A stretch of DNA of 31,448 nt from a virus (Duplodnaviria; Caudoviricetes): positions 1-31,448 of IMG/VR virus record IMGVR_UViG_3300012971_000060; one strand, given 5' to 3'. The first letter of the stretch is position 1; the number at the start of each line of letters is the position of its first letter. The notes beneath the pieces were generated by a model. That model was given only the letters and a program-made list of their open reading frames with translations, ran no database searches and had not been told where the DNA came from. Positions 11,202 through 31,447 of the stretch are shown here, piece after piece. The position numbers and the translations under genes are program-made.

Positions 11202-11669
11202 TCACCCCATTACATCATCTGATCCTTCGTACATCAACAGATCGCCAGTATTAGCGTTGTTGAAATCGACCCTGGTGAGAACCTTGATTGCAACTTTTTG
11301 CTCCGTATCGTCCGGATTGACGACATGACGGGTTTCGTATTCGCGATTCTCCTCGATCCAATCTGCACGTATATAGCCAGGATTGTGATCTATCCCCTGC
11401 AGCAGCACCGAGCCGCCTCCCGGAATGACCGTGTTGTTGAGTATTGGCGCGCTGTGGGTGATCTGGGTGATGATGTTGTTCATGATGTTGAGCGCGCGGA
11501 TTGCCGATGGCAAATCGACCGCGATCGGAATTGAATTTATATGATGCTGCAGCGAATACGGCCGCGCGAACTGATATGGATCGAGACCCTTCCCGCCGGG
11601 ATGATAGAGCGGTGCATCCGGCGATATGGCGTTGGAGTAGCTGATCGGACACGAGGGAGCATTAGACAC
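11202..11669 (-). CDS. Tail-associated hypothetical protein, paralogue A (APxCPIS family)
   Basis: Motifs APSCPIS, IPIAVDLPSA and ILNN; overlaps the upstream stop. Confidence 0.7.
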   Translation of the reverse strand: MSNAPSCPISYSNAISPDAPLYHPGGKGLDPYQFARPYSLQHHINSIPIAVDLPSAIRALNIMNNIITQITHSAPILNNTVIPGGGSVLLQGIDHNPGYIRADWIEENREYETRHVVNPDDTEQKVAIKVLTRVDFNNANTGDLLMYEGSDDVMG

Positions 11670-13959
11670 CGGCCAACTCCTTCACTGATGTGGCGACCTG
11701 CAAATTCGAGACGTTGATTCTTCCCTCGATCTCGAACGACCACTGCTCGCCCTTGATGCCGGAGAAGATCCGCAGGAGCTCGCCGCTCTTTCGGATCTCG
11801 CGCGTGGTCCAGAGCGCGTCATCAACATAGATCCGCACGATGCCGTACTGATTATTCCCAAGAACCGTCTGTGGAAAGGTCACGTCACGCGCCACCTGCG
11901 GCGGCGTGGTGTCGGGCACCTCGAAGAAGACCCGCATGGCCGCGAAGTTGCGCCGCGCCAACTGCTGATAGGTCTTCGAGCGCCAGATATAGGGCACGAT
12001 GATCGGATGCTGATCGGTGAAGTCGTAGTAATAAATGCCGCCGTTCTGCACCAGCACGCAGATGCCGGTCCAGGCGTCGAGCTCGACGTTGACGATGTCG
12101 AAGCCATTCGGTGTGGTGAGATTATTGTAACCCAATCTATGGCCACCGGCCTGCGGCCAGATCGTGAACGAGGTCTTGTCCTCGGACGAGAGCTCGACGG
12201 TGAAGCCATCACGGATCGGACCGCCGGGGTTACGCACGCCGAAGGCAAAATAGCTGGTCGCGTGCTTGACCGCCCGCACGCGCTGCTGCGGGGTGAGCGA
12301 CTGCCACTTCTCACGCGTGATCCAGCCCTCGGTGACGTTGAGACCAGAGCCGGACTGGCTGATCTGGATGAGGCCGTTCTGACTGACGTACAAGACTGCG
12401 GTGTCGGTGGCGACGATCGACGCCCGGTGCAAGCACGGTTCCGGCAGATTGACCTTGGTCGACGCCATGGATGCCGGATTGACGCCATTGATCATATACG
12501 GCGTGCCCTGCGTACAGACGATGATCGACTGGCCGGCAACGCCGATGCCGACGATGGGAAACTCCGTCGTTAAAACGTATCCAGGCGGCCACGCGTGCGG
12601 CCGGTAGGCTTCGCTGAACCATATTTCGTTCGAGCGGAAGCCGACCGCGATGCCATTGGGAAAGGCGTGGATCGCCTGCATGTCCTCCGGCGGTCCGTAC
12701 CAGTAAAGCGACACCAGCTGCGCGTTGAGCGCGATCACGTCGTCGCCGATATTGTCGACATACGTCCCCTGCGACACCGGGATCTCGGCGACGAGGAAGT
12801 ACGTCCCCATGCCGGACTGGTTGGAGATGGTGCGGTAGATGCGGGTGAAGGCGATGTTGCGATCAGCCGGCTTCATCGTGTTGTCGGCCGGATCGAGCCA
12901 ATCCGCGCCCATATTGCTGGGCGTGGGCTGGAATAGCGAGATGGTCCAGTTCGCGTTCGACCAGCCGTTCACGACCACGGGAGAAGACGGCGGACCTTCC
13001 TCGCCATATGCAGTAACCCAAGTGTAAACATAACCCCTCGCTTCGAAGATCGATGCGCCCAGAAGATTGGCCCAGATCCGATACGTCGCTTGCGGCAGCG
13101 ACACGTTCAATGGATCGGGCGGTGCGTTGGAGTAAGTCGCCGAATAGCCGCGGCTCTTGAGGCTGCTATTGGCGTTCTCCAGATTGTAAGGTGCATCGGT
13201 CATGATACCGACCCAGTAAGTCACGTTCGAGATGACCGACACACCATTAGTAATGACCGACGTATTTGCACTTCCCAAAGCGGCAGGGGTCGACACACCT
13301 TCACCGAGCAGCTGATAGGGCGCGCCGTTGAGATCGCTATAGACCACACCCCTGAAATTGACCGGCGAACCGACGTCATTGGGAGCAAACGACACGCTCT
13401 GGATAATCATCGTTCCCGAAGGAACGATCGGCACGAACAAGATGTAATTGCCGGGGACATACTGGAAGCCGGTGCTGGTCGTAGGATCGACCGTAGGGGC
13501 GCCCAGCGTGATGGTGTCACCGCCGCCATCGACCACCACACCAGGCGGACAGCCAGACGCCGGCACGCCCAGAATCCAATCGTGCTGGTCGTTAAAAATA
13601 CGATCGTAGGTATTGTAGCGCGGCACCGACGAAGGGCTCGCCCAATAGAAACGATCGTACTGATCCTGCACCACCGGCGAATGCATGACCGTGGTGTCGG
13701 GGTCGGCGAACTCGAGCCACTTGGAGTCGCTCGCCGTAATCGCGGTGTTGTTAGTAACCTTGTTGGGGACGCGGTAGACAAACTGCTTGGTGCTATCACG
13801 CAGCCAATGCAACAGCTTGGGCTGGCGCCAACCAATCAGTGAGCCGCTGAACAAATAACAATCGCGGGAGTAAGACGCTTGCCCTTCAGGCAGCAGTCGT
13901 GGATCCCAAGCGGGAAGCTAAAGCATCCCGCCGTACTTATCGAGTTTCAGTGCGGACAT
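11662..13959 (-). CDS. Tail tubular/nozzle (head-stabilisation) protein with an in-frame TAG at codon 14 (13918-13920)
   Basis: Strong SD (GAGAGGAGG) and ATG at 13959 are in frame with the 730-aa ORF, giving MSALKLDKYGGML*LPAWDPRLLPEGQA... Motifs YVYTWVTAYGEEGPPS, RIYRT, EIWFSEAYRPHAWP and WRSK resemble podovirus tail tube B/nozzle proteins. The TTG start at 13854 in the ORF track has no SD. Confidence 0.7.
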
Positions 13960-14435
13960 GGGATGCTACCTCCTCTCTCCAAATATTCTGCGCACCGCCG
14001 AAGACGTCTTGGATCGTCATCCGCACAGCCCAGCGTCAGATTACACGCATGGCAGAGAATACCGCGAAATTCCCCAGTGTTATGGTTGTGGTCGGTGTGC
14101 CACCCCCACTTCGTACCAGGGTCTTTCGCACCACAAATCTTACAAGATTCTCCTTGCTTGACAAATTCTTTTTGCCACTTCTCCATCGGCTCGTTGCCTT
14201 TTCCCGTCAAACCACACAATCGAAGTGCTTTATTTCGACGATGTAGTTTAGTTTTGTCCGGATTCGCTTTACCCCAATTCCGATTGTAATCAGCATGCGC
14301 GGCACGATGCCGTGCAGTAGCAGCAGTAATCACTGCCTTACCATGTTCAGTTCGATAGTATTCCTGACGAACTCCTTTCAGCCTCGCTTTGTGTTTCAGA
14401 TAATACTGTCGATGATATTCCCCATCGTACGTCAT
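13947..14435 (-). CDS. Free-standing endonuclease VII-like (His-Me finger) putative homing endonuclease
   Basis: CKICG...HTDHNHNTGEFRGILCHACNLTLG matches the EndoVII CxxC...DHxH...RGxLCxxCN signature. Basic N-terminus. ATGA overlap with the upstream gene; its 3' end overlaps the tail gene start. Confidence 0.85.
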   Translation of the reverse strand: MTYDGEYHRQYYLKHKARLKGVRQEYYRTEHGKAVITAATARHRAAHADYNRNWGKANPDKTKLHRRNKALRLCGLTGKGNEPMEKWQKEFVKQGESCKICGAKDPGTKWGWHTDHNHNTGEFRGILCHACNLTLGCADDDPRRLRRCAEYLERGGSIPCPH

Positions 14436-14929
14436 TTCATTCTCGTCGTCGTCTTACTCGTCGGATAAACTTCCTGCTGCGACGGATTGGGATGATGCAC
14501 GGTCTCCGTCGTTCCTAACCGCCTGCGCTCCGCTTCTTCGTACCGACGCGTGGCCTCGCGATTGCGCTCTTGCTCTTCGATCGCTCGCGCCACCGCCGCC
14601 TTGCCGGCCTCGACCTCGGCATTGTACGCCCTATCGGCCGCTTCAGTACGGTGATAATTCAAGCTCCAATCGATCTCTTTCGGCTTTCGATCGCGCAGCT
14701 TGCGAATGCGCTCGAGCAACATCTCGCGGGTCTCGCCGTCACGCACGAACCCCACTTGAAAGTCTAGCTGCTGGCTCTCGAGCTCCCGCGCTTTACGTTC
14801 CCGCTCTTCTTGTGCCAGCGCTTCCTGCTGCTTTCGAGCTTCTTCATCTGCTTGCTTTTGTACATGCTCTTCGCGCATCCGTTCCAAACGCTCTTCATGA
14901 TGGCTAATCGAGTCAGGTTTCTTGGCCAT
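14432..14929 (-). CDS. Hypothetical charged coiled-coil protein
   Basis: 165 aa, E/R/K-rich, with SD AGGAGG. Confidence 0.7.
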   Translation of the reverse strand: MAKKPDSISHHEERLERMREEHVQKQADEEARKQQEALAQEERERKARELESQQLDFQVGFVRDGETREMLLERIRKLRDRKPKEIDWSLNYHRTEAADRAYNAEVEAGKAAVARAIEEQERNREATRRYEEAERRRLGTTETVHHPNPSQQEVYPTSKTTTRMK

Positions 14930-30373: not shown

Positions 30374-31447
30374 TCAAGTGATAGCATCGCTTTCGTCCAT
30401 GTAGTCTTGCACATCCTGAAACATGGCATCCGCATCGGAGGAAAGAGTGACCTCGAATCGAATCGTAGGCCCATAATGATTACACAAATTCCTAAGCGTT
30501 AAGCCATGCGTTTCCGCACTGAACGCCGGCGCGTTCTTACATAGCGCTTGAAAATCCTCACCTCGGCCGGATCCATAATTCGTCCAATCCTCCGAACTGC
30601 AGCTGACCCCCTCTGACCACGCATCGAGATAGCCTGGATGCAATCCCTCGAGGAATTCGTCCATCAACTGGTCGAACTCAGGATTGCTGGCGCTTGACGC
30701 GTTATAACTGGTCTGAAAGGCGCCGGCTTCACAAGTGTTGCTGTCGGTATTGCTCGCGCTCTGATCCCTTCCACAGCAATGCTGACCGCTGGATTCGCGC
30801 ATTCCGCTTCCAAGCATGAAGGCGTAGAGATGCCGCAACGTATCGATCCCTGCTTCCTCGTTTGACATCCCTTCGTTCTCAAACTCATCGCGCCAAAGAT
30901 TTAACACGTCTTTTTCGGAATTAGTTCGCGCCTTGGCCATTTCGATAGCAGCGGGATGATTGACTAAGAGTTTTTTATAAGTCTGCGCGAACGACAGCGC
31001 CATGCCTTGAATGTATCCAGCCGGTGCAACGCCACGATCGGGCCAACTATAATCCGCAATCCGACTATCGTTGGCGATCCGCATGACCATCACCTGCTGC
31101 TCAGCGGTGAGCGCACCGGGTGGCGGTGGAGGCAGCGGTACCGGAAGCTTGTGACCATAAAGCGCTTCCCAAGTGAGCGGTCCACAAATACCGTCAGCTT
31201 CGAGCCCACGTGAACGTTGATACCGAACCACATTTTCATATGTAGTCGGACCAAAATCACCATCGAATTCACCCGTAAAGCGCGGAATCATGCGCTGCAT
31301 ATCGAGCACATCGTCGCCTTCATCGCCCTGCCGTAGCGTCGGTCGTTGATCGATAGGCACACTCCCAGGACGGTCTGGTAAAACTGGACGTGATGGCTTA
31401 ATGGGCGGCGGTTCAGTACCGATTGTAACTTCACCAACAACTCCTGC
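30374..31447 (-). CDS. Endolysin-like protein (5'-partial): peptidoglycan-binding domain plus putative lysozyme-like domain
   Basis: The frame stays open to the window edge (AGVVGEV...). LRQGDEGDDV...DGDFGPTT...YQ..RGL.ADGICGPLTW is a PG_binding_1 pattern; MRESSG...GAFQ resembles a lysozyme/transglycosylase catalytic motif. Confidence 0.75.
   Translation of the reverse strand, partial: AGVVGEVTIGTEPPPIKPSRPVLPDRPGSVPIDQRPTLRQGDEGDDVLDMQRMIPRFTGEFDGDFGPTTYENVVRYQRSRGLEADGICGPLTWEALYGHKLPVPLPPPPPGALTAEQQVMVMRIANDSRIADYSWPDRGVAPAGYIQGMALSFAQTYKKLLVNHPAAIEMAKARTNSEKDVLNLWRDEFENEGMSNEEAGIDTLRHLYAFMLGSGMRESSGQHCCGRDQSASNTDSNTCEAGAFQTSYNASSASNPEFDQLMDEFLEGLHPGYLDAWSEGVSCSSEDWTNYGSGRGEDFQALCKNAPAFSAETHGLTLRNLCNHYGPTIRFEVTLSSDADAMFQDVQDYMDESDAIT

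Follow-up and report, generated by a model that had tools for sequence, protein, structure and literature searches.

The stretch of DNA analysed here, referred to as the window, comprises 31,448 nucleotides (nt) of the virus record IMGVR_UViG_3300012971_000060, that is, 31.4 kb from a soil podophage resembling Ralstonia phage GP4. Its tail nozzle gene is interrupted after codon 13 by an in-frame UAG, the single internal stop among the 32 genes of the window, and the start of this gene is overlapped by a free-standing nuclease gene of the endonuclease VII (Endo VII) family. The interruption is real, recurs in related nozzle genes and is tied to the nuclease.

The explanation favoured here is that the nuclease gene, the beginning of the nozzle gene and a 6-nt insert carrying the stop form a cassette that spreads by homing, that the insert makes the recipient allele immune, and that ribosomes hop over the stop; these elements together are given a probability of about 0.55. 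In this scheme, homing likely proceeds through cleavage by the nuclease of insert-less nozzle genes at their conserved start, and the insert probably prevents self-cleavage. Ribosomes would likely take off at a first CUU codon, pass over a slow UAG and land on a second CUU, thus giving a nozzle of normal length. The features concerned are listed below; all are on the minus strand.

13947..14435, minus: free-standing nuclease of the Endo VII/DHHRN family, 162 aa, a predicted homing endonuclease (PF02945, conserved motif, PDB relatives)
13918..14431, minus: mobile cassette of 514 nt with the nuclease gene, a new Shine-Dalgarno (SD) sequence and start, recoded nozzle codons 1-13 and the insert (from comparison with a contig of run X8)
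13968..13974, minus: very strong SD sequence of the nozzle gene, AGGAGGT, located within the nuclease gene (duplex -13.4 kcal/mol)
13960..13967, minus: leader arm AGCATCCC, which separates the SD from the start codon and is the 5' arm of a predicted helix
13922..13929, minus: 3' arm GGGATGCT of the leader helix, which ends in the take-off codon
13921..13959, minus: nozzle gene codons 1-13 (MSALKLDKYGGML), conserved in the family and homologous to residues 1-61 of PDB 8JOV_A
13921..13923, minus: predicted take-off codon CUU (Leu13), from the sequence
13918..13920, minus: in-frame UAG, which with the following codon makes the 6-nt insert
13915..13917, minus: predicted landing codon CUU, by analogy with UUG-UAG-UUG, CCG-UAG-CCA, CAA-UAG-CGA and CAU-UAG-CUC in relatives
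11662..13917, minus: remaining tail nozzle gene, 751 open codons (phrog_511, E 2e-99; PDB 8JOV_A, E 3e-59)
13909..13932, minus: alternative local hairpin with the stop near the loop (-15.3 kcal/mol, z -1.55)
14432..14929, minus: upstream gene of unknown function, 165 aa, which adjoins the nozzle gene directly in relatives without the nuclease (tblastn: L001-L004, L006, L047 and others; X8 contig)

The interrupted nozzle gene and its cassette

The nozzle frame spans 766 codons from the ATG at 13959 and reads MSALKLDKYGGML-stop-LPAW, with CUU-UAG-CUU at codon 13, where homologues have a single Leu. The gene at 11662..13959 is identified as a tail nozzle gene from its matches to phrog_511 and 8JOV_A and from modelled structure: 8JOV chain A, present as six chains, is part of the portal-tail complex of phage GP4, the match of the window protein covers its residues 1-61, and the model of a nozzle relative has 8JOV_A as its top structural match, followed by tail chains of T7, SU10, Kp7 and P22. 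Among 119 homologous proteins, the motif is contiguous in 104 and substituted at equal spacing in one, while the other 14 start inside or after it; extra residues at the insert site occur in none, protein P0123 apart.

The gene remains under purifying selection in spite of the stop. In the long loci, 750-980 open codons follow the interruption. Between L030 and L193, which have the stop in common, dN/dS is 0.065/0.56 over 104 codons, and between L030 and L103 it is 0.031/0.27; comparison of the window with three intact relatives gives ratios of 0.15-0.17, and comparison of these relatives with each other 0.11-0.14.

As the original prediction had stated, the Endo VII-like frame ends at 13947, overlaps the start of the tail gene (by its last 13 nt) and lies less than 30 nt from the CUUUAG, the take-off CTT starting 23 nt from the nuclease stop. 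It matches Pfam PF02945 (Endonuclease_7) over residues 90-153 with an E value of 2e-18, has Hpy99I and T4 Endo VII as PDB relatives, and retains the full D-H-x-H...R...N set (D115, H116, H118, R124 and N132) together with four cysteines (C98, C101, C128 and C131). The DHHRN residues are essential in F-CphI, a homing endonuclease for which a C-terminal motif is described as typical of the endonuclease clade and an N-terminal one of the resolvase clade (PMC6083498, accessible part). In the window protein, the motif occupies residues 90-153 of 162, which is the endonuclease-clade position and not the N-terminal one of resolvases.

The nuclease is an optional gene between conserved genes, being absent from the X8 contig, from L244 (in comparison with L227) and from 117 of the 131 junctions described in the next section. 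The X8 contig (492 nt, depth 5.2) joins position 14432 to 13918 through 31 other letters. Translated by hand, they give an unchanged run of 12 N-terminal residues from a start at an ATGA overlap, and then one Leu codon, so that this relative is without the nuclease and without the insert at once; in the window, the nuclease ATG occupies the ATGA overlap at which the nozzle gene starts in empty alleles. Over codons 2-12, 9 of the 11 codons differ synonymously from the window (again by hand), whereas only 2 differences occur in the 45 nt past the insert, and therefore the replaced block ends at the insert; a further 38 are found in the 269 nt upstream. Nuclease, ribosome-binding site, recoded codons 1-13 and insert thus form one cassette, all of which a close relative lacks, and the suggestion that nuclease and insert are co-mobile is borne out, with the boundary at the insert itself. 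Run X8 also contains pieces identical to the window.

Two further comparisons show that nucleases at the nozzle site are optional and exchanged. Between L227 and L244, the difference is a nuclease gene cleanly inserted at the same ATGA, the second such case; L030 and L103 contain two different nucleases, and their flanks are nearly identical on both sides of a tract that diverges, like the product of co-conversion. The related genomes G001, G002 and G003 encode 6, 3 and 3 Endo VII genes, respectively, each just before the start of a different gene. A crude screen of the genes behind 82 Endo VII loci gave no stop-hop outside the nozzle gene.

No intron surrounds the nuclease, in agreement with what had been proposed: the nuclease gene has another gene on either side, and the cassette alone distinguishes the empty allele. 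Homing of the intron-encoded or collaborative group I type at the nozzle site was rejected, since only 6 nt are inserted and Rfam gave no match in the window, a weak negative as a group I-like intron in the major capsid gene was missed too. This intron (26069-25384, minus strand) follows a U, ends in G, leaves exon frames that join as FIP/EIW and contains a LAGLIDADG open reading frame (ORF) at 25953-25426. Capsid, adaptor, Gp77 fibre adaptor, collagen-like fibre and ejection proteins are also encoded on the minus strand of the window. A promoter and terminator scan gave counts at chance level.

The stretch around the insert is unchanged in single contigs from runs X2, X5 and X4, which excludes an assembly slip; all three are close to the source, X2 and X4 being possible sources themselves and X5 coming from the sample of a possible source, and for this reason they are not independent support. 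Runs X1, X6, X7 and X9 have no coverage of the site.

Inserts at related junctions

A set of 131 distinct junctions, each with at least 120 nt upstream, was pooled from several searches and is a sample among the matches listed (about 800-1100 family stretches in the viral set). A nuclease lies directly upstream in 14 of them, and 8 of these 14 are interrupted, compared to 1 of the 117 without a nuclease (p 1.5e-8); in the unbiased subset, which contains only loci from the nozzle searches, 4 of 10 compare with 1 of 117 (p 1e-4). The interrupted nuclease junctions comprise five 6-nt UAG inserts, two cases with one extra base (UUU-C) and one 44-nt hairpin. Besides the window, the interrupted loci are:

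L030, L193: UUG-UAG-UUG at codon 13
L190: CAA-UAG-CGA at codon 12; nuclease truncated
L393: CCG-UAG-CCA at codon 18
L451: CAU-UAG-CUC at codon 19; the one interrupted junction without a nuclease
L252:3510-3525 and L354:3440-3455: one extra base, UUU-C-GG, at codon 9, in unrelated nozzle genes behind Endo VII genes
L440:1457-1500: 44-nt insert between CAG and UUU, with a 13-bp hairpin and GUAA loop, ending in UAG

In L252 and L354, the sequence UUU-C-GG is a candidate site of a programmed +1 frameshift, likely by a slip between Phe codons. L440 has the non-canonical start codon ACG, and its nuclease is in frame with the first nozzle residues. Because the inserts stand at differing codons, the simplest reading is that they arose independently, with different cut sites, and we infer that different nuclease lineages at the nozzle site acquired different inserts independently. 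For the same reason, the quasi-palindrome that had been put forward as the nuclease target does not hold as a general target, the inserts being at codons 8/9, 12, 13, 18 and 19 in different lineages. This quasi-palindrome is the window sequence minus the 6 nt and occurs verbatim in the nuclease-less L047, while in the closest empty allele the second Gly codon is GGA; the local hairpin that it forms with the stop has equivalents in relatives that are no stronger than shuffled sequences. An origin of the insert as a repair scar, in which 4 nt are duplicated and TA is added, would account for the window, for L030 and very nearly for L190; it does not agree with L393 or L451 and was rejected as a general explanation.

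In the pattern searches, chance matches were dropped (41 of 76, 104 of 107 and 2 of 4). The insert pattern in metagenomes left 3 family matches among 107, all of them 6-nt UAG inserts beside Endo VII genes and one of them the window contig; of 4 matches to the +1 pattern, both that belong to the family are beside Endo VII genes. A stricter insert pattern gave no match in viral contigs. GTDB genomes contained distant relatives only, with neither nuclease nor insert where the N-terminus was found (21 of 38 had no N-terminal match), and a search for short or fused nozzle N-termini returned contig-end fragments only.

L190 and L451 share a spacer upstream of nuclease remnants that is not of Endo VII type (L190:510-636 and L451:1248-1370, 79% identical over 123 nt) and has no match in Pfam or Rfam; judged from its sequence, the L451 spacer looks like a decayed nuclease region. 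Rfam also gave no match in L190, L393, L440 and L451. In P0190, an Endo VII protein continues in frame into VPAIKIDQFGG and then into residues foreign to the family, which is likely another interrupted junction. Two nuclease relatives available as proteins only end in GG[SC]IP[CW]P, which codes for the same SD and leader as in the window.

Some other peculiarities of these loci were recorded. At codon 9, a conserved Phe/Tyr is replaced by Gly, Ile and Met in the nuclease-associated loci L018, L393 and L451, respectively, Met being present in some nuclease-less loci too. In the distant relatives L263, L266, L273, L277 and L279, the nozzle gene consists of two ORFs, split at a variable middle region, and the gene in L262 (3501-6303) contains several frameshifts that are probably sequencing errors. 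The apparent nozzle start of L060 and L439 is ATC, with no canonical in-frame start.

Several observations weigh against a strict coupling of nuclease, insert and hop. Six of the 14 nuclease loci have no insert (L007, L018, L023, L103, L227 and the degenerate L022), and L227 is identical over the site to L244, which has no nuclease; such uninterrupted lineages might rely on synonymous changes or cut elsewhere. The nucleases linked to inserts are not one clade, in a tree that is poorly resolved (3 of 21 branches starred), and inserts are kept beside a truncated (L190) or decayed (L451) nuclease, where precise deletion would be simple. The loci are related, and the p values overstate their independence; the empty allele is known from one contig only; and the +1 cases have no leader helix, in contigs where frameshift errors do occur (L262). 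To these points must be added P0123, a protein-level assembly clustered with the window protein, which reads LSL at the site, either through a read error or as a tolerated sense variant. The co-occurrence of nuclease and insert that had been predicted is non-random (8 of 14 against 1 of 117), but the link is not obligatory, as L227/L244, L190 and L451 illustrate. That the insert confers self-immunity is probable from its position and its association with the nuclease.

Probable hopping over the stop and the alternatives

A stop-hop at the nozzle UAG is considered likely from sequence comparison, and the form of the inserts argues for it. All six 6-nt inserts, from five lineages, consist of a stop plus one codon and never of a bare 3-nt stop, a regularity that favours hopping, and a hop would restore the family length at each of the four insert positions. 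The flanking codons are identical in two lineages, including the CUU/CUU of the window, and synonymous in one. The other two are mismatched at the middle base (CAA/CGA and CAU/CUC), which weakens strict matching, and in four of the five lineages the stop is followed by C, which is likewise unfavourable to the hop: UAG-C is a weak termination context and also favours read-through.

The mRNA upstream of the stop has two further features. The SD duplex of the window (-13.4 kcal/mol, against a median of -6.1 in 66 nuclease-less junctions) is matched in the six interrupted loci measured, at -11.0 to -16.7 (p 5e-5 against the same median; L451, -11.6), whereas four uninterrupted nuclease loci have values of -5.6 to -8.9; L440 is, by inspection, an exception to the strong SD. 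The second feature is the predicted leader helix, with 8 Watson-Crick pairs in the window (13960-13967 with 13929-13922; z -2.6 for the 52-nt stretch), a length attained by 1 of 70 uninterrupted junctions. It has 8 pairs in L393 (0 of 70), 9 in L451, 6 in L190 and 5 in L030, the last two lengths being matched in 6 of 70 uninterrupted junctions each. The helix shifts in sequence and position with the stop, even between the relatives L190 and L451. Its combined p is 2e-4, for a measure picked after seeing the data, and whole-window folding gave z values mostly between -1.2 and -2.0 (L393, -4.9).

In the proposed mechanism, the nuclease gene would have taken over the coupled start of the nozzle gene (ATGA) and brought a much stronger SD, which would offset a low hop yield for a virion protein needed in six copies. 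The leader helix would close only as the mRNA leaves the ribosome, pushing the ribosome forward like the driver stem-loops of bacteriophage T4 gene 60, for which such a role has been proposed (10.1101/2024.12.09.627546, accessible text).

The first alternative keeps the cassette but has the UAG read through by a near-cognate tRNA, so that the nozzle has two extra residues; it is a serious possibility, though an unlikely one. The UAG-C context, the mismatched codons of two lineages and the LSL of P0123 agree with it, and matched codons could be a by-product of a short duplication. However, read-through would add two residues to a region free of indels, and it is the insertion of 6 nt, rather than of 3 nt or a sense codon, that favours the hop: 3 nt, or loss of the stop, would suffice, yet a stop plus one codon is found each time, at four positions, and sense-codon insertion at the site occurs in 0 of the 119 proteins (P0123 apart) and 0 of the 131 junctions. 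The helix 5' of the stop also tracks the take-off codon, and no suppressor tRNA was found in the window or in G001-G003. The AlphaFold model of the relative P0002 has pLDDT below 50 at residues 1-41 and hence cannot decide whether two extra residues would fit.

A general recoding of TAG (code 15) or a suppressor tRNA was rejected: TAG ends 4 of the 32 window genes and is internal once, no tRNA genes were found in the window (about half a genome), and the complete relatives G001-G003 have no CUA tRNA. A tblastn screen of the latter for further internal stops was swamped by shadow frames. G001 (C1:30356-30432 and 30455-30531) and G002 (C1:33251-33327) contain genes resembling tRNA-Glu, in which an 8-nt anticodon loop, CCCCUCAG, is conserved while the stems differ; these are possibly tRNAs of the frameshift-suppressor type and not amber suppressors.

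In the second alternative, which appears improbable, the hop is real but acts as an expression valve: the leaky stop lowers a nozzle output raised by the strong SD, and immunity comes from recoded codons 2-12 or a distant cut site. A strong SD in every interrupted locus measured, and not in uninterrupted nuclease loci, suits the valve, but is equally well explained as later compensation for a low hop yield. The six nuclease loci without inserts, the inserts retained after nuclease decay and the recoding of 9 of 11 codons are also in its favour. On the other side, the ends of the inserts coincide exactly with the cassette boundary, within the motif that is most conserved, and nicking by the T4 homing endonuclease MobA was blocked by the insert and not by the polymorphisms alone (10.1101/2022.08.31.505936, accessible part).

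It is very improbable that the gene is broken (a defective phage, a repair scar or an error) or expressed from a downstream start without its N-terminus. Gene callers do begin such a gene at codon 37, as for P0001, but the stops occur in five independent lineages, with 750-980 open codons after each in the long loci and purifying selection; the N-terminus is conserved and has its homologue in the beginning of a virion protein of solved structure, and the stretch is reproduced in several assemblies. Reinitiation past the stop was discarded because the window has neither a start codon nor an SD just 3' of the UAG. Hardly credible, finally, is a junction resolvase or packaging accessory enzyme that stands there incidentally: PF02945 is named for recombination endonuclease VII and some podoviruses may use an enzyme of this family as a resolvase (PMC6083498, accessible part), but the C-terminal motif, the 3-6 copies per related genome, the optional presence and exchange at one site and the association with inserts (p 1e-4) all speak against it.

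Relation to known homing and recoding systems

The closest parallel is the mobA/gene 60 cassette of T4, due to Bonocora et al. 2011 as cited by Manning & Atkins (10.1101/2022.08.31.505936). According to the accessible part of that text, MobA elements take the place of host codons and have the bypass insert at their end, and it was this insert, not the polymorphisms, that blocked nicking. In both systems, a free-standing nuclease gene lies upstream and supplies a new start and replacement host codons; the last part of the element is a non-coding insert in which UAG follows the take-off codon, with RNA structure, a predicted one in the window, on the 5' side; and the insert outlives decay of the nuclease. 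The differences are that the nuclease is of the DHHRN/Endo VII type here and HNH in T4, that the host gene encodes a tail nozzle instead of a topoisomerase and is unsplit, and that 6 nt are skipped in frame in place of 50 nt with a frame change. Furthermore, unlike in T4, several independent insert types occur and the link is not obligatory (8 of 14), and 13 residues leave no room for a long nascent-peptide signal. The system of the window thus works like mobA/gene 60 but is not a member of it, since the nuclease family, the host gene and the size and frame of the insert are different.

Homing endonucleases of the Endo VII family have a precedent in F-CphI, the collaborative homing system of cyanophage S-PM2 (PMC6083498, accessible part), and what is new is their pairing with recoding inserts. 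F-CphI also is a free-standing nuclease with the Endo VII motif beside its target gene, where an insertion protects the target, as predicted here; the protective element is a self-splicing group I intron in that case, and 6 nt with a predicted ribosome skip in the window. The synthetic stop-hops of Weiss et al. 1987 (cited in PMC5009743) are similar in that matched codons lie on both sides of a stop, with 9 nt yielding one residue, but were laboratory constructs. In 2016, a review stated in its accessible part that no natural in-frame stop-hop was known (PMC5009743), and no later report of one, or of the present system, was found in the open-access literature, supplements excluded.

The UUA bypass in the phiHau3 terminase gene (PMC10732093) and the byps of Magnusiomyces are, like the nozzle inserts, short inserts in essential genes with candidate SD and stem-loop stimulators, and the 44-nt hairpin of L440 resembles a Magnusiomyces byp. 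By contrast, those elements are triggered by hungry or unused sense codons and are 10-55 nt long, and no adjacent homing endonuclease is described in the accessible portions of the accounts.

A broader view, advanced only tentatively, is that homing endonucleases of the Endo VII family have, time and again, made marks for their own immunity in the form of minimal recoding signals. One conserved gene start would have gained inserts independently at least seven times (6-nt stop-hops, +1 slips and a 44-nt hairpin bypass), and the 3' end of the nuclease gene would have co-evolved leader pairing up to the take-off codon, driving an efficient 6-nt hop that may even tolerate codon mismatch. This would be natural programmed stop-hopping, and the evolutionary seed of bypassing of the gene 60 type. 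Because gene callers shorten such genes, this class is probably under-counted.

The nozzle site is a testable cassette of 60 nt, of which nature provides several versions whose codons and helices co-vary. With it, the mobA/gene 60 principle reaches a further nuclease family and a virion gene, and the origin of programmed bypassing becomes testable, as a tiny scar selected for nuclease immunity and later improved by SD and RNA structure.

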